DNA from: Candidatus Taylorbacteria bacterium RIFCSPLOWO2_12_FULL_43_20
GTDB taxonomy: Bacteria > Patescibacteriota > Minisyncoccia > Phycocordibacterales > HO2-43-120
Length of the DNA: 64,000 bases
Direction of reading: 5' to 3'
Assembly (NCBI GenBank): GCA_001821295.1
Contig: MHSK01000006.1
Location: 11,801 to 75,800 of the forward strand
In this document: positions 1,877 to 61,304 of the stretch, in pieces
Layout of the letters: every line of letters starts with the position of its first letter
Numbering within the stretch: position 1 is the first letter of the stretch
Made by a program: the position numbers and the translations under genes
Notes under the pieces: model-generated
The model's input: the letters and a program-made list of their open reading frames with translations, nothing else
Told to the model about the DNA's origin: nothing
The model's database searches: none

Positions 1877-1940
1877 TAAATTATATACTTAGAACGTGCG
1901 CAACGGGTTGGGATTCTCCTTTTTTAAAGTGAAAATTGTT

Positions 1941-2000
1941 GGGGGCACCCCATCACCTCGGAAACCTCGGCTCTTCCCCTCTTCTAAAGAGGGGAAGAGG
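1941..2000. repeat. Repeat family A copy 1: cctcggaaacctcgg plus hairpin cttcccctc-N-gaggggaag
   Basis: About 60 bp near-identical to 37104-37165. Contains a perfect inverted repeat ctcttcccctc/gaggggaagag. Confidence 0.8.
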
Positions 2001-2037
2001 AAATCCTCCAGCCATGCCGATTGCGTAAGTTCTAATA

Positions 2038-2358: not shown

Positions 2359-2366
2359 TATTCATA

Positions 2367-2486
2367 GGACTTACGCAGTTGGATGCAGTTCGAGGCGCAA
2401 GCGAGGATTGCGACCAAAATGTATACTTATACATTGCGGGAGCAAACGGAGTTTGCAACGAAGAAATGCGCCGACTGCGTAAGTCC
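2367..2486 (+). mobile_element. MITE-like 120-bp element, family B copy 1, with 13-bp terminal inverted repeats ggacttacgcagt/actgcgtaagtcc
   Basis: Near-identical copies at 17988-18107 (inverted) and 34042-34161, plus a partial 5' copy at 52405-52434. Non-coding and intergenic. The internal palindrome is atgtatacttatacat. Confidence 0.7.
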
Positions 2487-2586
2487 TAATTCATACTATA
2501 CCATACACTCCCACCACATCAAGAGAAATTCAGTGGAAATATTGTTGTTTGTGGTCTGGCTCAAATTCGCTATACTTTAAACAATT

Positions 2587-5500
2587 ATGCCGAAATTTAC
2601 TCATCTTCATACCCACTCCCACTATTCCCTTTTAAACGCCCTGCCACGACTGCCGGAGCTGGTAAAATCAGCGAAAAAAGACGGCATGGAAGCACTCGCC
2701 CTGACCGATAACGGCAATCTATATGGGGCGATTGAATTTTACAAAGAATGTGAACAGCAGGGCGTGAAGCCCATACTCGGCATAGACGCTTACAAAGCCC
2801 TGCGTACGAGATTTGACAAGCAAGCCGGTATAGACAACAAACGAACGAGATTGATATTGTTGGCAAAAGACAATGACGGCTACAGAAACCTAATCAAGCT
2901 CGTTACGTACTCCAACCTTGAGGGGTTCTATTACAAGCCGAGAATCGATGACGAACTCCTTCGTAAATACGGAAGTCATCTGATATGTATTTCTCCGGCC
3001 GGAAACGGAGAAATATCAAACATGCTTAGAGTTGGTGATTTTGACGGCGCCAAGAGCAAAACACGCGCTTACGGCGAAATTTTCGGCCGTGATAATTTTT
3101 ATTTGGAAGTGACTCGCCATCCTCAAGATGAAGAGCACGAAAAAATTTTGCCGGATATTAAAAAACTTTCAGAGCAAACGGGAGCAGAGCTCGTTGGCGC
3201 GCACGATATTTACTACATAGACCCTGAAGACAAAAAAGCCCGAGACACATTGCTTTCCGTCCAAACCTCCGGCGATTTCAGCGAAAGAAGGGCCTTTGGC
3301 CGAAGTGAGAACGATTACTCTTTTCAACTTAGCGCAAAAATGAAAGAGGTGTTGAGAGATTTCAACGGCGCGTATGAAAACGCGGGAAAGATCGCCGATA
3401 AATGCAATCTTTCGCTGGAACTCGGCAAGTGGCTTTTTCCGGAATACAAGGTTGAAAGCGGATTATCATATGATGAAGAACTCAGGAGAATAGTGGAGTC
3501 GGGAATGGATAGACGCGGAGTCAAGCCGACGGAAGAAGTCAAAAAACGGCTAGAATACGAGCTGGGGATTATTTTCCAGAAAGGATACGCGCCGTATTTT
3601 TTGGTCGTAGGAGACCTGCTTCGCTTCGCTCATGAACGCAAAATATTGACGACTATACGAGGATCGGTTGCCGGTTCGCTCGTCACCTACCTTGCAGGCA
3701 TTACCAATGTAAACCCCCTTGAATACAAAATTCCGTTTGAACGATTTCTCAATCCTGAAAGACCGTCCGCTCCCGATATAGACATGGATTATGCTGACGA
3801 CAGACGGGATGAAGTTATAGAATACACGAAAAATAAATATGGTGTGGACAAAGTAGCGCAAATAGGAACTTTCGGAACAATGATGGCGCGCGGCTCTGTC
3901 CGCGACGTCACCAGAGCGCTCGGACATCCCTACGGCGTAGGCGATGAACTTGCAAAAATGATACCGATGGGATCGCAGGGGTTTCCCATGACCATAGACC
4001 GCGCTCTTGAAATTGTCCCTGAACTTGCGAAAAAATATAAAGAAGATCAGACCTCAAAAGAAATAATGGACATCGCAAAAAAAATTGAGGGGTGCGCCCG
4101 GCATATCAGCGTGCACGCGGCAGGCGTGGTTATATCTCCTGTCCCGCTAACCGATATTGTCCCTTTGCAATACGACACCAAAGGAGAAAATAAAATCATC
4201 ACTCAGTATGACATGTATTCAATTGACGAGAACAATGCCGGACTTTTGAAATTTGATTTCCTGGGAATCAAGAATCTTTCAATTTTGGCAGAGTCGGTAG
4301 ATCATGCCAACAAGCGCTACGGCGCAAACATAGATATAGAAAAAATCCCGGTGGATGATGTCAAGACTTTTGATCTTTTGTCCCGAGGCGAAACAGCCGG
4401 ACTCTTCCAGATGAACGGCTCCGGCATGACCGCCTACCTGAAACAGCTGAAGCCGACAAGTATTTTTGATATCAACGCCATGGTCGCCCTTTATCGCCCT
4501 GGCCCCATGGAATCCATTCCACAGTACATAGAGCGAAAACATAACCAGCATCTGGTATCTTACCTGGATCCAAGAATGAAAAATATTTTGGATCAGTCAT
4601 ACGGGGTTATAACATACCAGGACGACGTTCTCCTCATCGCCATAAATCTTGCCGGATATACATGGCTTGAGGCAGATAAACTTCGTAAAGCCATGGGCAA
4701 AAAAATCCCCGAAGAAATGGAAGCTCAAAAAGAAAAACTTATTCAAGGCCTAGAGAAAAATGGCATGAATGGCAAGAAAGCCGGCGCCCTATGGAAGCTC
4801 ATAGAGCCTTTTGCCGCGTATGGATTCAATAAAGCCCATGCCGCTAGCTACGGCCGCGTGGCGTACCAGACCGCTTACATGAAAGCCAATTTCCCCGCCG
4901 TGTATATGTCATCCGTGCTCACGGCGGACTCCGGAGATGTGGAAAAAATCGGAGAAATAATCTCGGAGTGCAAGCGAATGAATATTCCGGTTTTACCCCC
5001 GGATATCAATGAGAGCTTTGCCGACTTTGCGGTCGTCGGCTCCGGCAAACCCGACGATGAAGAAAAAATTCGTTTTGGGCTGACAACTATAAAAAACTTT
5101 GGGGTCGGAATAGCGCAAATCATAATTGATGAGCGTGAAAAAAACGGAAAATACAAATCATTATCGGATTTTCTGGATAGAGTTAAAGATAGAAATCTGA
5201 ACAAAAAATCCCTGGAAGCTCTGGTCAAATGCGGTGCGTTGGATTCCTTCGGTGAAAGAGGTACCATGCTCGCCAATATAGAGGATCTTCTCGCTTATAA
5301 TAAAGAACAGTCTAAAAACAGCAATCATGATTCATTGTTCGGCGGGCTTTCCGAAGAAAACACGGGGATAAAAATGGCGCCGGCGGAAAAAGCAACCATG
5401 AATGATATGCTTGCGTGGGAAAAAGAGCTTCTCGGGCTATATATCTCCGGACATCCTTTGGACCGCGTAAAAGATCAATTGACGCGGCAAGGGAATAGTA

Positions 5501-5775
5501 TAAAAAAGATCAAAGAAGAACTGAAGGAAGGGATGACGACGGTGATAGCCGGAATTGTGGAAGAAGTAAAACCCTTACTGACTAAAAAAGGCGAGCAAAT
5601 GATGTTTATGAGAATAGCGGACTATACCGGATCAATAGAAACGGTCGTATTCCCCAGAGTGCTTACGGAATACAAAACCCTGCTGACTCCCGAATCCTGT
5701 ATCGCCATCAAGGGGAAATTCTCTTTGCGTAATGATACTCCCAGCATCCTCGTGGATAAAGTGAAAGGATTGTAG
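2587..5775 (+). CDS. dnaE: DNA polymerase III alpha subunit
   Basis: 1062 aa. N-terminal PHP domain (HLHTHSHYSLL), conserved polymerase core, OB-fold tail. Confidence 0.95.
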   Translation: MPKFTHLHTHSHYSLLNALPRLPELVKSAKKDGMEALALTDNGNLYGAIEFYKECEQQGVKPILGIDAYKALRTRFDKQAGIDNKRTRLILLAKDNDGYRNLIKLVTYSNLEGFYYKPRIDDELLRKYGSHLICISPAGNGEISNMLRVGDFDGAKSKTRAYGEIFGRDNFYLEVTRHPQDEEHEKILPDIKKLSEQTGAELVGAHDIYYIDPEDKKARDTLLSVQTSGDFSERRAFGRSENDYSFQLSAKMKEVLRDFNGAYENAGKIADKCNLSLELGKWLFPEYKVESGLSYDEELRRIVESGMDRRGVKPTEEVKKRLEYELGIIFQKGYAPYFLVVGDLLRFAHERKILTTIRGSVAGSLVTYLAGITNVNPLEYKIPFERFLNPERPSAPDIDMDYADDRRDEVIEYTKNKYGVDKVAQIGTFGTMMARGSVRDVTRALGHPYGVGDELAKMIPMGSQGFPMTIDRALEIVPELAKKYKEDQTSKEIMDIAKKIEGCARHISVHAAGVVISPVPLTDIVPLQYDTKGENKIITQYDMYSIDENNAGLLKFDFLGIKNLSILAESVDHANKRYGANIDIEKIPVDDVKTFDLLSRGETAGLFQMNGSGMTAYLKQLKPTSIFDINAMVALYRPGPMESIPQYIERKHNQHLVSYLDPRMKNILDQSYGVITYQDDVLLIAINLAGYTWLEADKLRKAMGKKIPEEMEAQKEKLIQGLEKNGMNGKKAGALWKLIEPFAAYGFNKAHAASYGRVAYQTAYMKANFPAVYMSSVLTADSGDVEKIGEIISECKRMNIPVLPPDINESFADFAVVGSGKPDDEEKIRFGLTTIKNFGVGIAQIIIDEREKNGKYKSLSDFLDRVKDRNLNKKSLEALVKCGALDSFGERGTMLANIEDLLAYNKEQSKNSNHDSLFGGLSEENTGIKMAPAEKATMNDMLAWEKELLGLYISGHPLDRVKDQLTRQGNSIKKIKEELKEGMTTVIAGIVEEVKPLLTKKGEQMMFMRIADYTGSIETVVFPRVLTEYKTLLTPESCIAIKGKFSLRNDTPSILVDKVKGL

Positions 5776-5858
5776 CTATTTCATTCAACATTGAAGATAA
5801 GGGCCCGTATCTGCTCACAGAGCCGAGTAATCCGCCAACTGTAACACTTTTTTCTTCT

Positions 5859-5935
5859 GTCATTCCCGCAAAGGCGGGAATCCAGATTCAAATGCTTGCT
5901 AGATTCCCGCCTTCGCGGGAATGACACCCCTCAGA
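5859..5935. repeat. Long palindrome: two 24-nt arms gtcattcccgcaaaggcgggaatc/gattcccgccttcgcgggaatgac, 1 mismatch, 29-nt spacer
   Basis: Seen directly. Lies 85 bp downstream of the dnaE stop. Each arm has its own sub-hairpin cccgcaaaggcggg. Confidence 0.8.
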
Positions 5936-8279: not shown

Positions 8280-8314
8280 ACAAGAAACAATCGGTAATCG
8301 GCATATTTTCTCCC

Positions 8315-8345
8315 AAGAATGTCAACGCTTAGCGTTGACATTCTT
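8315..8345. promoter_or_regulatory. 31-bp palindrome, family F copy 1: aagaatgtcaacgc-tta-gcgttgacattctt
   Basis: Perfect 14-nt arms. Copies at 8604-8634 and 9942-9972. Confidence 0.7.
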
Positions 8346-8603
8346 CATTTACAAAAAAGCCAGATTGCATGAATCTGGCGTAACGAAAGAACAAGGTTGG
8401 GTGCAAGGTACTTCCTGGATAGTAGATGCTGAGCATTTCAGAAAAGCCCCCTGCCCCAACCAAAAATATTTGGTCGGCCAAGCGGAATGCTGCGATTTAG
8501 AGAATGGTTCCCCCTTTTCATTCCGCCCAGCCAAAAACAATGATAATTCATATTCCCCTGTTTGCAAAGTTGACAATCCGCATGATATATTTTCTACCTT
8601 ACC

Positions 8604-8634
8604 AAGAATGTCAACACTAAGTGTTGACATTCTT
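8604..8634. promoter_or_regulatory. Palindrome F copy 2, overlapping the uvrC stop codon
   Basis: aagaatgtcaacac-taa-gtgttgacattctt. Confidence 0.7.
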
Positions 8635-9905
8635 TACTTGATGATTTTTCTCATCTTTCGGTGATATTTGATGGCAAAACGATGCGCCTCACTGTTGACT
8701 ATTAAAATCTCTTTCTTAAAATTTCGAGCCAGATTTTCATTGCCAAGTATTTTTAACGGCTTATGCCTGTCATTTTTGACGACGGAAAACACCTCGGCGT
8801 TAATCCCTTTATTTTTTATAACGCGTAAAGCGGTATTTCTTTGCGCCACCCCTCCGTCCACCACGACAACATCCGGGAAAGGCCATTCGTTGTGGCCGAA
8901 TCGCCTCAGAAGCGTCTCCTCTAGCGCCGCGGTGTCATCGGGGCCTTTTTGACGGCGTATCTTGAACAGCCGGTAATCCGATTTTTTTACATGCTTATCC
9001 TCCATGACTACCATTACCCCTCCCATGTCGCGTCCGGCCATGTGAGCCACGTCATATCCTTCCATCCTAAATATCCGAGTATCCTTTCTTTCTTGCCTCT
9101 GGCCGGCGCCAGCTAGATCGTCATCATGCTTGATCAAAGAAATATCCTGAACGTGCTCCAGAGCAAAAATTGTCCTTTTGACACTCTCCGCTTTTTCAAA
9201 TTCCTGATTTTTTGCGTAATTTCGCATATCTTGGCAAAGTGAGCGTAACAATATGTTTTTTTTGCCTTCAAAAAATAATCTAATATTTCTGATAATTTTA
9301 GCATAGTCGCGCTTGTTTATTTCTCCCGTGCAAACTCCAGGGCACAGGCCGATCTGCCTGTTGAAACAAGGCCGGCTACTCTTGGAATACGTTCCCGACT
9401 TTTCGCTTACCGGCACGCATTTATCCCTGAAAGTAAATATTTTTCTTATAATTCTCATGCCTTCTCTGAGCACGGCGCCTTGCGTATAAGGTCCGAAAAT
9501 GTGTTTGATTTTATAACCGGGATTGCCGCTTTCAAGATCTTTGCCGCGTACGGTAAGAATCCTAGGGAAATCCTCGTCAGTAAACGCGACATACGAGAAG
9601 CTCTTATCGTCTTTGTCGGCTGTATTCGCATTTGGATAATATTTTTTTATCAGATTTGATTCCAGTATGACGGCCTCCAGAACAGAATCTGTCTGAATAT
9701 GTTCGACTCTGTCGGCCTCTTCAACCATACGCGCCACAATCGGCCCGCGAGTAATAGCGAGATCGTTTGAAAAATAACTGGAAACTCGGTCCATTAGAGA
9801 AGTTGCTCTGCCGATATAAAGAACATCGTCCCCTTTTTTGAAGAAGTAAATTCCCGGCGCGTCGGGAAGATCTTTTTTATTGAAATTTTTCATGATAGTC
9901 AGCAT
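8634..9905 (-). CDS. uvrC: Excinuclease ABC subunit C, short form (GIY-YIG plus RNase-H-like endonuclease domain; no C-terminal HhH)
   Basis: GIYFFKKGDDVLYIGRATSLMDRVSSYF (GIY-YIG) and MEGYDVAHMAG motifs. 423 aa versus about 600 for canonical UvrC. Confidence 0.8.
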   Translation of the reverse strand: MLTIMKNFNKKDLPDAPGIYFFKKGDDVLYIGRATSLMDRVSSYFSNDLAITRGPIVARMVEEADRVEHIQTDSVLEAVILESNLIKKYYPNANTADKDDKSFSYVAFTDEDFPRILTVRGKDLESGNPGYKIKHIFGPYTQGAVLREGMRIIRKIFTFRDKCVPVSEKSGTYSKSSRPCFNRQIGLCPGVCTGEINKRDYAKIIRNIRLFFEGKKNILLRSLCQDMRNYAKNQEFEKAESVKRTIFALEHVQDISLIKHDDDLAGAGQRQERKDTRIFRMEGYDVAHMAGRDMGGVMVVMEDKHVKKSDYRLFKIRRQKGPDDTAALEETLLRRFGHNEWPFPDVVVVDGGVAQRNTALRVIKNKGINAEVFSVVKNDRHKPLKILGNENLARNFKKEILIVNSEAHRFAIKYHRKMRKIIK

Positions 9906-9941: not shown

Positions 9942-9972
9942 AAGAATGTCAACACTTAGTGTTGACATTCTT
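9942..9972. promoter_or_regulatory. Palindrome F copy 3 (arms extend to 18 nt) 37-67 bp upstream of the uvrC start
   Basis: atccaagaatgtcaacac-tta-gtgttgacattcttggat. A candidate -35/-10 pair TTGATG-17-TAATAT lies between it and the start codon on the minus strand. Confidence 0.6.
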
Positions 9973-10027
9973 GGATATAAAAAAACGGATGACCATGTAA
10001 TATGGCATCCGCTTCAATCAACTTAAA

Positions 10028-15368: not shown

Positions 15369-15377
15369 TGTTATATC

Positions 15378-15525
15378 GTGAATTACGAAACTCTTTTCTC
15401 AGCAGGGCTTTTGCGGAACACGGGTATTTTTTTGGTAAAAAATCCCTATGCAGAGCCCGTCGGCTTGCGCAATGTTCCGCAAAAGCCCTGCCTTCGACGA
15501 GTTTCGTAATACAAGGTGTTATACG
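15378..15525. repeat. Repeat family D: inverted pair (15378-15423 and 15473-15525), gtgttccgcaaaagccctgc-N-gagtttcgtaatac
   Basis: Two arms of about 40 bp in opposite orientation separated by about 50 bp. More copies at 37187-37235 and 56288-56328. Confidence 0.75.
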
Positions 15526-17944: not shown

Positions 17945-17987
17945 ATTGTGAGTGGCTTATTCTTATAATTACTAATTGCCATCCTTT

Positions 17988-18107
17988 ATGACTTACGCAG
18001 TCGGCGCATTTCTTCGTTGCAAGCTCCGTTTGCTCCCGCAATGTATGAGCATACATTCTGGTCGCAATCCTCGCTTGCGCCTCGAACTGCATCAAAATTC
18101 GTAAGTC
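17988..18107 (-). mobile_element. MITE-like element family B copy 2 (inverted orientation)
   Basis: Reverse complement of 2367-2486 with a few substitutions. One terminal repeat is degenerate (aaattcgtaagtcc). Confidence 0.7.
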
Positions 18108-18175
18108 CTATCGTTAATAAATACATTATATATAATTCACGGTTCTCGGTACAGCTATTTCATCTACATATACCA

Positions 18176-18255
18176 TGGGTTTTCATCAATCTGCAAGCCA
18201 TAAATTCACAACATGCTATAGTACATTTCAACTTGTAACGGCACTAGCCATTAGA
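18176..18255 (-). repeat. Inverted repeat G, left copy, immediately downstream of ackA
   Basis: Reverse complement matches 21800-21872 over about 68 bp with 3 mismatches (agtgccgttacaagttRaaatgtactatagcatgttgtgaatttatggcttgcagattKatgaaaa). Confidence 0.85.
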
Positions 18256-21799: not shown

Positions 21800-21872
21800 A
21801 CCAGTGCCGTTACAAGTTAAAATGTACTATAGCATGTTGTGAATTTATGGCTTGCAGATTTATGAAAATCCA
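21800..21872 (+). repeat. Inverted repeat G, right copy, immediately upstream of xfp. A partial inverted partner aacttgtaacggtactag lies at 21893-21910.
   Basis: See 18176-18255. Confidence 0.85.
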
Positions 21873-21948
21873 TGGTGCATGCAGAGAAAATTAACTTGTA
21901 ACGGTACTAGTAACCACGAAATTCGAAGCGAAACTCAAAAAACAGTAT

Positions 21949-28785: not shown

Positions 28786-29148
28786 TTATTTCTTCTTCTT
28801 ATGCCTGGTGTTCTTCGTCTCCTTATTTTTTTTATCACTTTTCTCCGCAACCACTGAATAACCCTTTCCGGACTCGTATCTCAACTCTTTTTTCAATTTT
28901 TCCAATGTTACATATTCTCCCCTCTTAAACTCATCCTCCGCTTTCTTGATCTTATCCATAAACTCAGGGTCGCCTAGTATTTCCATATCTTCCATAATAT
29001 CCTCAAAGTCGCTCGCGGACATAAGCACGGCTTTTGGCCTTCCTTTTTCTGTGAAGGTGTAATAATTATTCGGTTTTTGCACTTCCTCGGCTATATCAAA
29101 TATTTTTTTTCTCGCCTCGGAAATTGAAATGGTTGTTTTGGCTTTCAT
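28786..29148 (-). CDS. Type II antitoxin, Phd/YefM family
   Basis: TISISEARKKIFDIAEEVQKPNNYYTFTEKGRPKAVLMSASDFEDIMEDMEIL is a typical YefM fold sequence. Lies directly upstream of the toxin. Confidence 0.75.
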   Translation of the reverse strand: MKAKTTISISEARKKIFDIAEEVQKPNNYYTFTEKGRPKAVLMSASDFEDIMEDMEILGDPEFMDKIKKAEDEFKRGEYVTLEKLKKELRYESGKGYSVVAEKSDKKNKETKNTRHKKKK

Positions 29149-33231: not shown

Positions 33232-33464
33232 TTTTTAATGTGTAATAAAATTATTATATCATCATTTTCGTTACTGCCGGCCAGGGACCATGAATACATT
33301 TCTCTCCCTCGACTCTCGTCGTGCCGTCGCACTCCTCGGTCTGGGCACCAGCTCGTCTGTTTTTTCTACTGAAAAAACATGACTCCGCTGTTCTCGTCCC
33401 TACGCGAGTGAAGCAGTTCACTCGCTGGCCGGCAGCAAAGCCTTTCGCTTCGCTCATTGCTTTA

Positions 33465-33535
33465 CTGCCGGCCAGGGACTCGAACCCCAATACCCGCCTC
33501 CAAAGGGCGGTGTCCTACCATTAGACGAGCCGGCA
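33465..33535 (-). tRNA. tRNA-Gln (anticodon UUG)
   Basis: Minus-strand sequence TGCCGGCTCGTCTAATGGTAGGACACCGCCCTTTGGAGGCGGGTATTGGGGTTCGAGTCCCTGGCCGGCA(G). Perfect 7-bp acceptor stem with U1:A72 and G73 as in bacterial tRNA-Gln. Anticodon stem CCGCC/GGCGG, loop CTTTGGA. Confidence 0.85.
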
Positions 33536-33610
33536 ATATTTTTATCCATATTAAGATTTTTGTATTATGCCTTTTATATCAGACTTTTTCAATGATTGAT
33601 CTTCTTTCCA

Positions 33611-33974: not shown

Positions 33975-34041
33975 CTGAGGGGTATTATTGTTAATTTTAT
34001 TATATTTTTATAATTTTCAGCACCTCCCTCTATTCACTATA

Positions 34042-34161
34042 GGACTTAGGCAGTAAGATGCAGTTCGAGGCGCGAGCGAGGATTGCGACCAAAATGTATG
34101 CTTATACATAGCGGGAGTAAACGGAGCTTGCAGAGAAGAAATGCGCCGGATGCGTAAGTCC
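34042..34161 (+). mobile_element. MITE-like element family B copy 3
   Basis: ggacttaggcagt…gatgcgtaagtcc, about 90% identical to 2367-2486. Confidence 0.7.
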
Positions 34162-34177
34162 TATACTATCCACTTTT

Positions 34178-35215
34178 TCAATCGCTGTGTTTGGATATTA
34201 ATGAAATAAGAGCAAGTTCCAAGGGAAGTTCGGGAAGATGGGCGTAGCCCGCGACATCATACGCATTGAGAAGCTCAAGGAGAGTTTTGGATGAAATTTT
34301 GGATTCAGGATTCTCCGCGATTTTTTGTAGAAAAGAATAGTCGCTTTCCGTCACCTCATCTTTTATCAGCTGTTCCATATCTTTTGCATATTTCAAAAGC
34401 AAAATTAATCTGATCTTATGCATAACCAGTTTAATGAATACCCTCATATCTACATTGGCGTCATTAGCCCTTCGCACAGCCATTAGACCCCGCTCCAAAT
34501 CCGACACCTCTATAGCCTCAATAAAATCATTGACCAGTTCGCCTTTGGGAGCGCCGGAAACCAGCTCCACCTCGTCAGCGCTGATTTTTTTATCTTTGGA
34601 AAAACTCAATACTTTCTGTAAAATATTCTGCGCGTCCCTGAATGACCGATCGCCAAGCACGGCAATGAGCTCCGCCGATGACGGCTCCAAAGTATAGCCC
34701 TCTTTCTTGGCGATGGAAATAACCACATTTTTCAAAACCTCCTGGCTTGGTTTTTTAAACTGAAATACCTGACAGCGAGACACTACCGTTTCCGGCAACT
34801 TCTCCATTTCCGTCGTGGCGAGAATAAACACAACATGCCGCGGCGGCTCTTCCAGAGTTTTCAACAAAGCATTAAACGCTTCTTTCGTAAGCATATGAAC
34901 TTCGTCTATTATGTAAACCTTGTATTTTGATCTGAACGGCAAAGTGCTGACACCTTCCTTGAGCTCTCTTACGTCATCAATGCCTCTATTGGAAGCGGCA
35001 TCTATTTCGTATAGGTCATCCGAAGCAGTGCCTATCTGACTAGCGAATATCCTGGCAATAGATGTCTTGCCGATTCCTCTCGTGCCAAAAAACAAATAAG
35101 CATGAGATATCTTGCCCGAGTCTATGGAGCCCTTGAGTACATTGACAATATGATCTTGACCAATAATTTCCTTAAACGACGAGGGTCTGTATTTTCTATA
35201 TAAAGCCAATTCCAT
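34178..35215 (-). CDS. dnaX: DNA polymerase III subunit gamma/tau (short form)
   Basis: YRKYRPSSFKEIIGQDHIV…FFGTRGIGKTSIARIFA (Walker A), DEVHML, SRC sensor motif. Start set at MELALYRKY. Confidence 0.9.
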   Translation of the reverse strand: MELALYRKYRPSSFKEIIGQDHIVNVLKGSIDSGKISHAYLFFGTRGIGKTSIARIFASQIGTASDDLYEIDAASNRGIDDVRELKEGVSTLPFRSKYKVYIIDEVHMLTKEAFNALLKTLEEPPRHVVFILATTEMEKLPETVVSRCQVFQFKKPSQEVLKNVVISIAKKEGYTLEPSSAELIAVLGDRSFRDAQNILQKVLSFSKDKKISADEVELVSGAPKGELVNDFIEAIEVSDLERGLMAVRRANDANVDMRVFIKLVMHKIRLILLLKYAKDMEQLIKDEVTESDYSFLQKIAENPESKISSKTLLELLNAYDVAGYAHLPELPLELALISLISKHSD

Positions 35216-35269
35216 GCACCTAGTATACAACATTTGAAATAAAAAAAACGGCATGCGTAACACAGCCGT

Positions 35270-36984: not shown

Positions 36985-37103
36985 CCAGCCAGCATACCAA
37001 AGATTTGCAAATATTTCCTATTGAATTTTGAATTGCGAAACTCGTCGCAGGCAGGGCTTTAATGGAAATTTCCAATATCTAATTACTAATTCCCAATGGA
37101 AGA

Positions 37104-37165
37104 TGGGACACCCCTTCGCCTCGGAAACCTCGGCACTTCCCCTCTAAAGAGGGGAAGATGGGGAG
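37104..37165. repeat. Repeat family A copy 2
   Basis: ccccttcgcctcggaaacctcggcacttcccctctaaagaggggaag. Confidence 0.8.
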
Positions 37166-37186
37166 GGTCTCTCCCGTCGACTAACA

Positions 37187-37235
37187 CAATGTTCCGCAAA
37201 AGCCCTGCCGAGAAAAGAGTTTCGTAATACACCGT
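37187..37235 (+). repeat. Repeat family D copy 3
   Basis: tgttccgcaaaagccctgccgagaaaagagtttcgtaatac. Confidence 0.75.
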
Positions 37236-37262
37236 ATTGAATTTTCTTTCGTCACGAGATTT

Positions 37263-46908: not shown

Positions 46909-46982
46909 TCGTTAAGCGGTATCTACTATAAACGGCTCACACACGTGTGTGAGCCATTCAGTTTAATTTATCTACTCGTCAA

Positions 46983-47043
46983 CCCTCCCACGGTTCAAGT
47001 CCTTGAGGAGTTCACTCATCCGATTCGTGAGCCACCTCTCGGA
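46983..47043. repeat. 61-bp perfect direct repeat, distal copy (proximal copy 47134-47194 overlaps the tRNA-Thr 3' end)
   Basis: ccctcccacggttcaagtccttgaggagttcactcatccgattcgtgagccacctctcgga appears twice, separated by 90 bp carrying two small hairpins (ttgaaaacccaaggttttcaa and cggggaactcccgttccccg). Confidence 0.9.
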
Positions 47044-47180
47044 ATTTCACGTCGCTTTGCTCCTTGAAAACCCAAGGTTTTCAACGCTCGAAGACTCGCT
47101 CTTTCCTACACGGGGAACTCCCGTTCCCCGACCCCCTCCCACGGTTCAAGTCCTTGAGGAGTTCACTCATCCGATTCGTG

Positions 47181-47253
47181 AGCCACCTCTCGGACTTGAA
47201 CCGAGGACCCACGCTTTACAAAAGCGTTGCTCTACCAACTGAGCTAAGGTGGC
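47181..47253 (-). tRNA. tRNA-Thr (anticodon UGU)
   Basis: Minus-strand GCCACCTTAGCTCAGTTGGTAGAGCAACGCTTTTGTAAAGCGTGGGTCCTCGGTTCAAGTCCGAGAGGTGGCT. 7-bp acceptor stem, anticodon stem ACGCT/AGCGT, loop TTTGTAA, T-arm CTCGG-TTCAAGT-CCGAG. Confidence 0.88.
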
Positions 47254-50287: not shown

Positions 50288-50390
50288 ATGCGCTATCCGT
50301 TAAGCATATCTACATAAAGAACGCTGTCGTAGAGCTATGGAGCATTCCTTATTCGTGTGCACTTTTCGTCATGTGGTATCTACTATAAAC
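50288..50390 (+). repeat. Two tandem family C copies (50288-50318 and 50350-50390) between rpmE and prfA
   Basis: gcgctatccgttaagcatatctac and attcgtgtgcacttttcgtcatgtggtatctactataaac. Confidence 0.7.
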
Positions 50391-50853: not shown

Positions 50854-50976
50854 CTTAACGCTTCGGTTGGGGCTCCAACCAAAGCGTCAAAGTCGCACAT
50901 TTGTATCTTTTATTACTAACAACTATTGACTATCAACTCCCCCATGTGCGCTACTCGTTAAGCAGTATTTACAATG
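50854..50976. repeat. Composite: family I copy 2 (50854-50895) plus family C copy 5 (50943-50976)
   Basis: Same I-then-C arrangement as at 46869-46935. Confidence 0.7.
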
Positions 50977-52353: not shown

Positions 52354-52404
52354 ACATACATATTAAACCAGCCTCCGCTTGATTGCCAGAGGCATAGTAT
52401 TATA

Positions 52405-52490
52405 GAACTTACACAGTTGGATGCAGTTCGAGGCATGCCCGCAGGTCTCTCTAGTTCGTGTACTCTATTCGTTAAGCGGTATCTGCTTAT
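52405..52490 (+). repeat. Partial family B 5' end (52405-52434) followed by family C copy 6 (52453-52490)
   Basis: gaacttacacagttggatgcagttcgaggc then ctctattcgttaagcggtatctgc. Confidence 0.65.
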
Positions 52491-56065: not shown

Positions 56066-56280
56066 CTCTCTACCAGTTGGAATCTCTTCTGTCTTTTACC
56101 ATCAAATTCAACTTCCTCATCAAACATAAGCGCCGGCCTTACCCATATTTTGTTTTCCGATTCATACTGCGGCTCGTACACCACCATATCTTCCATCGTC
56201 TCGGAGTGTTTGGCAAGACAAATGATTTTGTACAATTTATGATTTTTGAAATGTTTATATATCCCCCCTATTTTTATCAT
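56062..56280 (-). CDS. DUF1653-family small protein
   Basis: YKHFKNHKLYKIICLAKHSETMEDMVVYEP…WVRPALMF pattern. Confidence 0.55.
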   Translation of the reverse strand: MIKIGGIYKHFKNHKLYKIICLAKHSETMEDMVVYEPQYESENKIWVRPALMFDEEVEFDGKRQKRFQLVES

Positions 56281-56287
56281 GATTTAT

Positions 56288-56328
56288 CGTGTATTACGAA
56301 ACTCTTTTCTCGGCGAGTTTCGTAATTC
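56288..56328. repeat. Repeat family D copy 4 (forms a hairpin attacgaaactc-N10-gagtttcgtaat)
   Basis: cgtgtattacgaaactcttttctcggcgagtttcgtaattc. Confidence 0.7.
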
Positions 56329-56689
56329 AAATTGATTTAAAAACATCAAGTTTACTAATGAGATCTTCTCTGATTTCCTCGGGAGGAAGATCATTGGGAT
56401 ATTGTTTCTTTATCTCTTCAAACTTATCTCGCAAAATCTGAAGTCGATCAAATACTTCTGAGTATTGCTCCACCACTTCAGAATCTTTCATTTTGGCTAC
56501 TTCCAAGCCCAAAATAACAGCCGCCAAAACGTTCCCGTATTTAGCTGTCCATGGCTCTTTAGCGGCATCCAATACCTCTTGAGAGAATTTTGGAGGCGCT
56601 TCGCTTATAACTCTTTTCACTCGGAGTATAGACTCCGGCTCATGTTCCCTCTCTTCACTGTTTTGTTCGGCGACCATATTTTCAGACAT
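56327..56689 (-). CDS. Hypothetical acidic helical protein (120 aa)
   Basis: ORF only. Overlaps the tktB start by 8 nt. Confidence 0.35.
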   Translation of the reverse strand: MSENMVAEQNSEEREHEPESILRVKRVISEAPPKFSQEVLDAAKEPWTAKYGNVLAAVILGLEVAKMKDSEVVEQYSEVFDRLQILRDKFEEIKKQYPNDLPPEEIREDLISKLDVFKSI

Positions 56690-60755: not shown

Positions 60756-61304
60756 TTATTTATAGAAATCTTCTTCCTCATAATAGTAGGACTGCTCTAC
60801 GCCCTTCATGAAGATTTCGCGGTCACTAATTTTGTCGGTCAACGCAGCACGCAAAAGTTCGCGAATTTCTAGGTCATTCACCGGACTTCTTTGCATAGCA
60901 TTTAAATAATCTGCCTTGTCAATCTTCGCCCAATTAACGCATTGCTTGAGGTTCTTTTTCAAAACTAAGTCTAGCCAGATCCTCATACTGCGCCCATTTC
61001 CTTCCATAAACGGATGAGCTATATTCATTTCCACATATTTCGCGACAATTTGCTCAAAAGTACTTTCCGGCATTTCATCTATTTTTTCCAGACTTTCCTT
61101 CAAGTACAAGTGAGCGGCAAATCGAAAACCGCCCTTGCTTAAATCTTTTTTTCGTATCTGGCCGGAAAAGTCATAAAGTCCTCCAAATAAATATTCGTGG
61201 ATCTGTTGCAAACCTCTGGTTGTACCAACTTCAAAACCTGTAATTTCTGAGCTACCAAACAATTTTTTGGCGCGTTCTTTGCTAGTTTGGTCAACATTAG
61301 ACAT
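60756..61304 (-). CDS. fic: Fic/Doc-family (Fido) protein
   Basis: Canonical Fic motif [12 protein letters not shown] (HxFx[DE]GNGRxxR). 182 aa. Confidence 0.85.

Follow-up and report, generated by a model that had tools for sequence, protein, structure and literature searches.

TnpA of the IS200/IS605 insertion sequences (IS) and the Y1 transposases associated with repetitive extragenic palindromic (REP) sequences act on folded single strands, and the Correia elements of Neisseria have a TA at their ends. In REPINs, mobile DNA that forms hairpins, the spacer is reported to need only a certain length and the capacity to fold back on itself, and compensatory changes are common (PMC3116915). 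In bcr1, a repeat of the Bacillus cereus group, compensatory changes maintain the structure and the genomic distribution is not conserved (PMC3184786). Here we describe a family of repeats present in a 64,000-nucleotide stretch of DNA from Candidatus Taylorbacteria bacterium RIFCSPLOWO2_12_FULL_43_20 (contig MHSK01000006.1, positions 11,801 to 75,800), hereafter called the window. A preliminary description of the window had reported MITE-like units (miniature inverted-repeat transposable elements) of 120 bp. These units are members of a so far undescribed family of ~125-base hairpin-forming intergenic elements found in many Patescibacteria (the candidate phyla radiation, CPR), whose interior is conserved and whose terminal stems vary in sequence yet still pair.

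The window carries three full copies and one 5' fragment, as had been reported, and the covariance model of the family, run over the 64 kb, recovers these three full copies and no more, at 115-141 bits (Table 1). Pairwise identity between them is 87-94% over ~125 nt (90%, 94% and 87% for the three pairs, from a repeat finder), where 88-95% had been given. Copies 1 and 3 lie exactly where they had been placed; copy 2 is shifted by one base, to 17989-18108 from 17988-18107. The truncated copy, aligned over 52402-52434, is 94% identical to copy 1. The density had been extrapolated to the order of 100 copies per Mb; the window gives ~47 full copies per Mb, and in the other loci, which were picked for holding one copy, the extra copies come to ~20 per Mb. 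Repeat identity, folding energy relative to shuffled sequences and covariance-model matches together rule out chance or artefact as the origin of the repeat. All the window copies lie between open reading frames (ORFs) and, as first described, they are non-coding: neither the ATG within GGATGCAG nor its reading frame is kept among copies, and neither indels nor loops come in lengths divisible by three, so that a protein-coding function or a small ORF can be set aside.

A 22-base core pattern, GCAGTTCGAGGCGCNAGCGAGG, was run once over 185,579 species genomes. Exact matches came from 58 loci (cited here by their L numbers) in ~40 metagenome-assembled genomes (MAGs), of Patescibacteria type only. 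Their labels are Nomura-, Paceibacter-, Taylor-, Kaiser-, Yonath-, Moranii- and Parcubacteria, and a few read 'Saccharibacteria', 'Bdellovibrionales' or 'uncultured bacterium'. The odd submitter labels ('Candidatus Saccharibacteria', 'Bdellovibrionales') on L050, L041, L047 and L009 clash with the homology of the flanks to Nomurabacteria and Kaiserbacteria: L050 shows 79% DNA identity to L001, from Nomurabacteria, and L047 aligns with L012, from Kaiserbacteria. To judge by these flanks, the four contigs are probably mislabelled Patescibacteria. With the covariance model, 70 copies are found in 59 sources (the window and the 58 loci), 8-10 of them having no 22-mer match, and several may share one 8-kb locus (four in L032, three in L010). 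The unit measures 117-127 nt, with a few copies of 149-195 nt, and holds no conserved ORF or frame. The covariance model finds no copy in 18 unrelated metagenome loci, and viral contigs, phage records and plasmids give no match, which speaks against a phage or plasmid origin. No family of Rfam 15 matches: the window yields two tRNAs only, and copy 1 nothing credible up to E = 10. Nor is there a copy in ~60 kb around dnaE in the three closest relatives, whose DnaE proteins are 74%, 68% and 68% identical to that of the window. With matches in many lineages and none in the ~60 kb from the three nearest, the family is thus widespread across Patescibacteria and yet patchy among close relatives. The source of the window is itself a Patescibacteria MAG, which agrees with the streamlined small genome presumed in the preliminary description. 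Exact protein matches lead to contig MHRB01000010.1 of assembly GCA_001820825.1, and the DnaE of the window is nearest to proteins named Candidatus Taylorbacteria. No account of the family was found in the literature searched on CPR repeats or non-coding RNAs.

Copy 1 folds into a single rod-like hairpin of -63.8 kcal/mol, compared to -30.6 ± 3.1 for shuffled sequences (z = -10.6). The terminal inverted repeats had been put at 13 bp; complementary ends are indeed present, and they are longer than that, with 18 bp including the flanking TA and, past a bulged A, 4+3 more pairs (TGCA/TGCG, a G·A mismatch, then TTC/GAA). Further in, an asymmetric core is conserved across lineages, consisting of GAUGCAGUUCGAGGCG on the 5' side, CAACGAAGAAAUGCGCC on the 3' side and an apical GUA...UAC. 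The 5' core was included in the search pattern, so its conservation is partly a matter of ascertainment, but it is still kept by the copies found through the covariance model alone. When old-looking copies of the same genome are compared, their terminal arms are 44-67% identical (57% in nzgw482, 67% in SO_2016_GW1_97 and 44% in nzgw478) versus 82-92% for the interior outside the search pattern and 88-100% for the 3' core, GAAAUGCG. Over all copy pairs the figures are 58% for the arms versus 92.5% for the 3' core; the arms of the window copies taken alone are alike (84%). Pairing between the arms nonetheless stays at ~90-93% of cells. In a MAFFT alignment of 54 copies, 84% of cells are paired, against 32-43% when the partner is slid, and the covariation score is 0.348 against 0.06-0.10. 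In a model-based alignment of 70 copies, 92.3% of cells are paired, against 32-45% in slid controls, and 32 of the 37 pairs have changed on both sides; none of 500 shuffles reaches the observed values. Compensatory changes affect 22 of the 25 stem pairs, as in the arms TAGATTTTACACTTTTGG/CCAAAAGTGTAAAATCTA, TAGGGCGCACGCAGTTGG/CCGACTGCGTGCGCCCTA and TAGGAGCCGAACAATCAG/CTGATTGTGCGGCTCCTA. The length of the arms is kept: counted from TAG up to the base that precedes GCAG, the 5' stretch measures 20 nt in 61/66 copies, and 59/66 have a 3' stretch of 18 nt.

The rest of the hairpin displays the same mixture of fixed and covarying parts. At the top of the apical hairpin GTA...TAC is invariant (65/65), the lower stem covaries, and the loop is of 3-7 nt or expanded. 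Helix P3 occurs in compensated subtypes (GCAAGC/GCUUGC, GCGAGC/GCUCGC, AAAACCU/AGGUUUU), with GCGAGC/GCGAAGC in its place in the commonest subtype. Several copies have acquired extra stem-loops at loops while keeping GAUGCAGUUCGAGGCG and CAAC...AGAAAUGCGC (L018, L022, L019, L025:2734, L026:1972 and L017:1091). The core was compared by hand only, for leads, with the K-turn, the T-loop, loop A of the hairpin ribozyme and a tRNA-like T arm, none of which fits cleanly, and the compensatory changes favour the P1b pairing.

Had the arms drifted independently to 58% identity, ~40% complementarity would be expected in place of the ~90% seen. This means that the folded state, or a process depending on it, is constrained. 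The pattern is the reverse of that of a classical MITE, since the interior is kept and the end stems vary yet pair; the mechanism implied by 13-bp terminal inverted repeats differs from what the sequences conserve. The term MITE-like therefore holds in part. The elements are small, non-coding, dispersed, multi-copy, flanked by TA, inserted in either orientation and patchily distributed, with a filled and an empty site and a burst of copies (see below). It does not hold for arms that are less conserved than the interior (82-100% within a genome) and that pair through compensatory changes, nor was a transposase found in the scanned window ORFs or the ~800 kb of loci. A cut-and-paste MITE in the strict sense, moved by a TA-duplicating DDE transposase (IS630/Tc1-mariner type) that binds the inverted repeats as double-stranded DNA, strikes us as improbable. 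It would agree with the TA found at both ends in ~60% of copies and with the random orientation and context. It would also suit the near-identical termini of the three window copies, the fragment and the hybrid 1889-2036, one of which encloses another interior, and the fact that the inverted repeat is conserved over its inner 12 bp (GGaTGCAgTTC / GAAaTGCGCC), which could be a binding site. However, the 15 bp between the end triplet and that site would then be free spacer and should have lost their complementarity to the same ~40%, and conservation extends over the whole interior rather than the repeat alone. Moreover, no transposase or integrase domain, Y1_Tnp included, was recognized in the 50 window ORFs scanned against Pfam (out of 68 candidates of at least 70 codons). 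The ~800 kb of loci, less than 2% of each genome, contain no transposase gene, whether IS630-like or other, no autonomous partner and no IS with matching ends, which it had been proposed to look for. An autonomous element with the same ends was also sought through solitary halves; the only one in the ~800 kb is the truncated copy of the window.

Placement and orientation relative to genes are unbiased, and the flanking genes are unrelated housekeeping genes. Relative to their two flanking ORFs, 20 copies are (-,-), 14 (+,+), 13 (-,+) and 12 (+,-). Clustering of 410 flanking ORFs revealed no enriched partner family; neighbours in other loci include hup, pheS, pheT, gyrB and genes for secreted proteins. 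With no coherent set of neighbours and all four orientation contexts at similar frequency, a cis-regulatory leader or riboswitch is rejected. The preliminary description had held that covariation-supported structure combined with consistent placement relative to genes would favour a non-coding RNA; the structure is there and the consistent placement is not. Consensus scans of the window copies and their borders detected nothing resembling a promoter or a terminator. An intrinsic terminator is not supported either: none is seen at these copies, and their flanks tend to be rich in T on the upstream side and in A on the downstream side, the reverse of the order required. In L010, a minus-strand operon (…pheS, pheT…) has three spacers in a row that are each filled exactly by a copy, in the orientations +, + and -, which leaves no room for a private promoter.

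The ends bear on how the element fits between genes. TAG stands at the 5' end of 39/66 copies and CTA at the 3' end of 40/66; in answer to the earlier suggestion that target-site duplications be sought, the TA may be such a duplication or a part of the palindrome. Twelve of the terminal triplets also serve as the stop of an ORF of 80 codons or more; in L027, where the element lies between two convergent genes, both ends do so. Such overlaps are expected if insertion hits the TA of a stop codon, because TAG is then re-formed on either strand by the terminal G/C of the element. Of the 12 overlaps, 10 are at the 3' end and 2 at the 5' end, and where operon junctions are tight, more copies are antisense than sense (~11 to 3); these are hints of an orientation preference, too few to count.

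Several observations point to mobility. In L011, L052 and L039 an element lies 12 nt before the ATG of a hup-like gene, downstream of a conserved promoter-like box, and in L053 the orthologous 5' region of hup is empty. If the element and one TA are removed from L011, the sequence ...AACCTAAAAAATAATATG can be set against ...AGAATAAAAAACA... in L053 and the flanks then match; this empty site is compatible with a single TA. The Greene1014_15 genome has at least 7 copies at different loci with the same arm sequence, down to a derived G·G mismatch, and this identity suggests a recent burst. Within the window, the truncated copy and the hybrid 1889-2036, with the same ends and another interior, are products of decay. 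Contigs L015, L040 and L049 end inside an element, as happens at high-copy repeats. The near-identical strains all carry the copies of the window, with no presence/absence polymorphism among them. A metagenome scan with acetate kinase for orthologous empty sites retrieved only relatives at 39% identity or less, and the L25-SLT spacer is not alignable with that of the closest relative.

Mismatches in the outer stem inform on the level, DNA or RNA, at which pairing is maintained. A strand-specific functional RNA is normally far more tolerant of G·U than of A·C. In the variable outer stem, G·U occurs 43 times and A·C 34 times, or 38 and 33 times when each genome, column and type is counted once (p = 0.64). 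The G·U/A·C counts are 11/10 for copies co-directional with both neighbours and 12/11 for those antisense to both. With the two mismatches about equally frequent, the constraint on the outer stem is Watson-Crick and strand-symmetric, as DNA pairing would give. Symmetric wobble, the lack of orientation bias and the lack of transcription signals make us lean towards a life cycle at the DNA level, while leaving room for a function as RNA.

The explanation that we favour, and to which we would give roughly an even chance, is that the family is a non-autonomous, selfish mobile DNA hairpin of Patescibacteria, REPIN-like in its logic and read through its conserved core. An enzyme acting in trans would recognize the asymmetric core and cut at a measured distance from it, at the base of the stem beside the TA; arms of fixed length and free sequence would follow from cleavage at a set distance from the hairpin. 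Complementarity of the arms would be needed for the folded state, or else be restored by it. Insertion at a TA would let the terminal G/C rebuild TAG stops, enabling the element to survive in the very short spacers of compact genomes. The inserted hairpin would probably be present in read-through transcripts too, where it might have REP-like effects on mRNA, as a side effect and not as the cause of its conservation. A more doubtful proposal, a long shot in our opinion, is that of a novel class of structured element, specific to Patescibacteria, with a core that would be a catalytic or protein-recruiting RNA or single-stranded DNA. Each round of propagation would renew its outer stem, one arm serving as template for the other in a self-primed, fold-back reaction. 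Such copying would explain how arms can be wholly different between copies and yet perfectly complementary over exactly 18 bp.

Several findings weigh against a mobile DNA hairpin. No mobilizing enzyme was found in the scanned ORFs of the window or in the sampled loci. Orthologous copies in different species behave in a way that looks like purifying selection in place: L011 and L052 have cores that are identical outside the apical stem and arms that differ at four positions, each compensated, beside hup genes that show ~77% DNA identity (L039 included), and the L001/L050 pair behaves alike. This would imply that the copies are either selected where they stand or often corrected by gene conversion with their sisters. 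Transposition of the IS200/IS605 type predicts an orientation bias, and none is seen with respect to gene direction, taken as a proxy for replication. The empty site in L053 is the single one found, and duplication of TA is not distinguishable there or elsewhere from a palindrome that includes it. Finally, a U·G pair of the inner helix, conserved in 62/67 copies, and a recurrent G·U at the adjoining pair favour one strand, and in all three window copies the + strand folds better as RNA than the - strand. The U·G and this strand preference are properties of the conserved sequence rather than independent events, so that wobble asymmetry is uninformative for the inner helices, its signal stemming from one ancestral U·G.

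The same findings can be turned towards a structured RNA selected by the host, transcribed by itself or within neighbouring mRNAs. Its internal loops would bind a protein or catalyse a reaction, its stem would be an RNase III-type processing or stability element, and mobility would be secondary. We think this unlikely, though it is the chief rival. The strong covariation described above, the conserved asymmetric purine-rich internal loops lying beside variable helices, the stem-loop insertions of variable length that spare the core, and P3 covarying among subtypes are all what a functional RNA would exhibit. The better folding of the + strand and the retained U·G point the same way, core conservation in orthologous copies exceeds that of adjacent coding sequence, and related genomes contain RNase III genes. 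Against it, orientation relative to flanking genes is unbiased and the neighbourhood inconsistent, promoter and terminator are both missing, with no room for them in operon spacers that are filled by antisense copies, and outer-stem mismatches show no preference for wobble, either overall or by direction of transcription. Absence from ~60 kb of the closest relatives of the window's genome means that it is not an essential conserved RNA, and Rfam offers no match even at E = 10. A loss of structure in copies antisense to transcription was sought indirectly, and none was seen.

Selection on the chromosome could also act on a host DNA site of architectural or protein-binding type, comparable to REP/BIME, which might be extruded as a cruciform and serve as target for a nucleoid protein, gyrase or a recombinase. 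The strand-symmetric Watson-Crick constraint on the stem, the independence from orientation and context, the core kept in place in orthologous copies and the invariant palindromic GTA...TAC at the centre would all be accounted for. A site of this kind is nevertheless very improbable: close relatives with the same gene order do without it, near-identical copies arise in a burst-like manner in one genome, truncated copies exist, there is no known candidate for the binding protein, and a double-stranded binding site does not require the arms to be complementary.

Table 1. Positions of the family members in the window and of the parts of copy 1
Feature	Position	Strand	Remarks
Copy 1	2365..2488 with flanking TA on each side; element proper 2367-2486	+	covariance model 140.8 bits
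Copy 2	17987..18110 with flanks; element 17989-18108	-	covariance model 119.5 bits
Copy 3	34040..34163 with flanks; element 34042-34161	+	covariance model 114.8 bits
Truncated copy	52403..52434; 52405-52434 as first described	+	5' arm plus GATGCAGTTCGAGGC only; ends after GAGGC
Diverged relative	1889..2036	+	termini TAGAACGTGCGCAA... / ...TTGCGTAAGTTCTA; no covariance-model match
Copy 1, outer stem P1, 5' arm TAGGACTTACGCAGTTGG	2365..2382	+	pairs with 2471-2488 (CCGACTGCGTAAGTCCTA)
Copy 1, conserved 5' core GATGCAGTTCGAGGCG	2382..2397	+	bulged A2383, P1b TGCA, G, TTC, then purine-rich internal loop
Copy 1, apical hairpin AATGTAT-ACTT-ATACATT	2418..2435	+	
Copy 1, conserved 3' core CAACGAAGAAATGCGCC	2456..2472	+	outside database search pattern

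The start of dnaE (2587-5775 +) is 98 nt downstream of copy 1, which also lies ~70 nt upstream of an 85-aa ORF running in the divergent direction (2038-2295 -). Copy 2 stands between the stop of ackA (18269) and the start of a gene for a TPR protein (17944), co-directional with both. Copy 3 lies 16 nt past the stop of a gene resembling those of DNA polymerase III delta'/gamma (34178-35263 -), to which it is antisense, and a tRNA-Gln (33464-33536 -) is encoded ~500 nt farther on. The truncated copy lies between the L25 and SLT (lytic transglycosylase) genes; an unrelated repeat of 30 nt begins 20 nt beyond it. The diverged relative has a 3' arm identical to that of copy 1 at 13/15 positions and a 3' sub-terminal GAGGAAATCCTCC similar to GAAGAAATGCGCC; its interior differs and carries another repeat module, at 1942-1982.

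This module, of 41 nt (GGGRCACCCC..CCTCGGAAACCTCGG..CTTCCCCTCT), recurs with 90% identity at 37105-37145. Its two occurrences are nested in different hairpin elements, one having ends like those of the present family (family B) and the other the ends of a family C, which suggests nested insertion or a shuffling of modules among hairpin repeats. Among the loci examined, the module was found in the species of the window only. A second family of long hairpins, with termini ATTACGAAACTC... / ...GAGTTTCGTAAT, is present at 15369-15523, 37028-37241 (~210 nt) and 56280-56339, and in a strain variant (L078) a gene-order breakpoint falls exactly at the terminus of the 15369-15523 copy. The 30-nt repeat, TTCGYGTGCACTATTCGTTAAGCGGTATCT, lies on the + strand at 2322-2351, 46909-46933, 50352-50381, 50941-50970 and 52455-52484. 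It adjoins copy 1 and the truncated copy and sits 27-200 nt upstream of the starts of minus-strand genes (the 85-aa ORF, a prfA/B-like gene, rpmE and SLT). Read on the minus strand, it may represent a promoter or leader motif.

Other repeats in the window involve particular genes. Three copies of a 33-nt near-perfect palindrome, CCAAGAATGTCAACRCTWAGYGTTGACATTCTTGG, surround uvrC (8634-9905 -), at 8313-8345, 8602-8634 and 9942-9974. Just downstream of dnaE there is a 69-nt palindrome (5858-5926) with 28-nt arms that are 93% complementary; at the Yonathbacteria locus L031 the equivalent position after dnaE holds a family-B element. An 89-nt inverted repeat (18157-18245 / 21803-21891, 91% complementary) adjoins copy 2 and encloses xfp (phosphoketolase) together with the acetate kinase gene; on the upstream side of xfp, its arm runs into a TATAAT-like box. 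A 64-nt direct repeat (46983-47046 / 47134-47197), 98% identical and spaced by 151 nt, overlaps with its second copy the end of a tRNA-Thr gene (47180-47253 -), and may be a duplication or an integration scar at that gene. The only genes of toxin-antitoxin type, akin to selfish modules, seen in the window encode a Phd/YefM-type antitoxin and a Fic/Doc-family protein (28786-29148, 60756-61304).

Patescibacteria have genomes of ~1 Mb that are thought to be poor in repetitive or mobile DNA, and to our knowledge almost nothing is known of their non-coding elements. In some members of the group the present family takes up several percent of the intergenic spacers, wedged between genes by supplying stop codons, with a core conserved better than neighbouring protein genes. 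If it is mobile DNA, the CPR would harbour an unrecognized, structure-dependent transposition system, and the elements would mark genome dynamics as well as assembly breaks in MAGs. If it is a functional RNA, it would be a widespread new motif. Should the arms be copied by folding back, this would be a form of mobility not known before, or a new class of RNA, in the least-understood third of bacterial diversity. Either way, the inverted MITE pattern offers a clean test case for telling selection on a folded state from selection on protein-binding repeats.

The family belongs to the broad kind of interspersed palindromic repeats or miniature mobile elements, and the REPIN/RAYT system is among the closest described ones. 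Both consist of extragenic hairpin repeats of ~100 nt, in tens to hundreds of copies and without coding capacity; both associate conserved recognition modules with a base-paired segment subject to compensatory changes, and both presumably pass through a folded single-stranded stage. An alternative 'clover' fold is also possible in the subtype of the window. However, a REPIN conserves its two terminal REP sequences and lets the spacer vary, whereas the Patescibacteria family conserves the interior and lets the terminal stem vary, and the 5' and 3' halves of its core are not inverted copies of one motif. The host is not a proteobacterium, and no RAYT gene was seen in the small part of each genome covered (excerpts of 8-20 kb). 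The Correia elements, ERIC/RU-1 of enterobacteria and bcr1 are, like the present elements, imperfect intergenic palindromes of 100-155 bp lying in either orientation, and they can be co-transcribed with genes and change the fate of mRNAs. They differ in conserving their terminal inverted repeats and in staying within a genus or family. The Patescibacteria family has no sequence similarity to them, spans many groups at the level of candidate phyla and keeps a near-invariant asymmetric core. It is not a member of the REPIN or bcr1 families, because conserved and variable parts are arranged the opposite way and no Y1 transposase was seen.

The IS200/IS605 TnpA serves here as a working analogy only. 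It recognizes an irregular folded hairpin rather than a repeat sequence and cleaves at a set distance from it; by contrast, the ends of these IS carry two small sub-terminal hairpins, not one hairpin as long as the element, and their insertion takes place 3' of a defined tetra- or pentanucleotide with a replication strand bias. None of these features was observed in the Patescibacteria family. Integron attC sites were considered and rejected: they would have RYYYAAC ... GTTRRRY in cassette arrays, whereas the ends here are TAGGAC.../...GTCCTA and the copies are dispersed among housekeeping genes. With the structured non-coding RNA motifs of Rfam, the family shares covarying helices around conserved loops and insertions of variable length at hairpin tips; unlike them, it is multi-copy, patchy, free of gene association and orientation bias, and matches no Rfam 15 entry. 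In sum, three traits make the family distinct: a conserved asymmetric core, a terminal stem of fixed length and free sequence, and a range that extends across the Patescibacteria.

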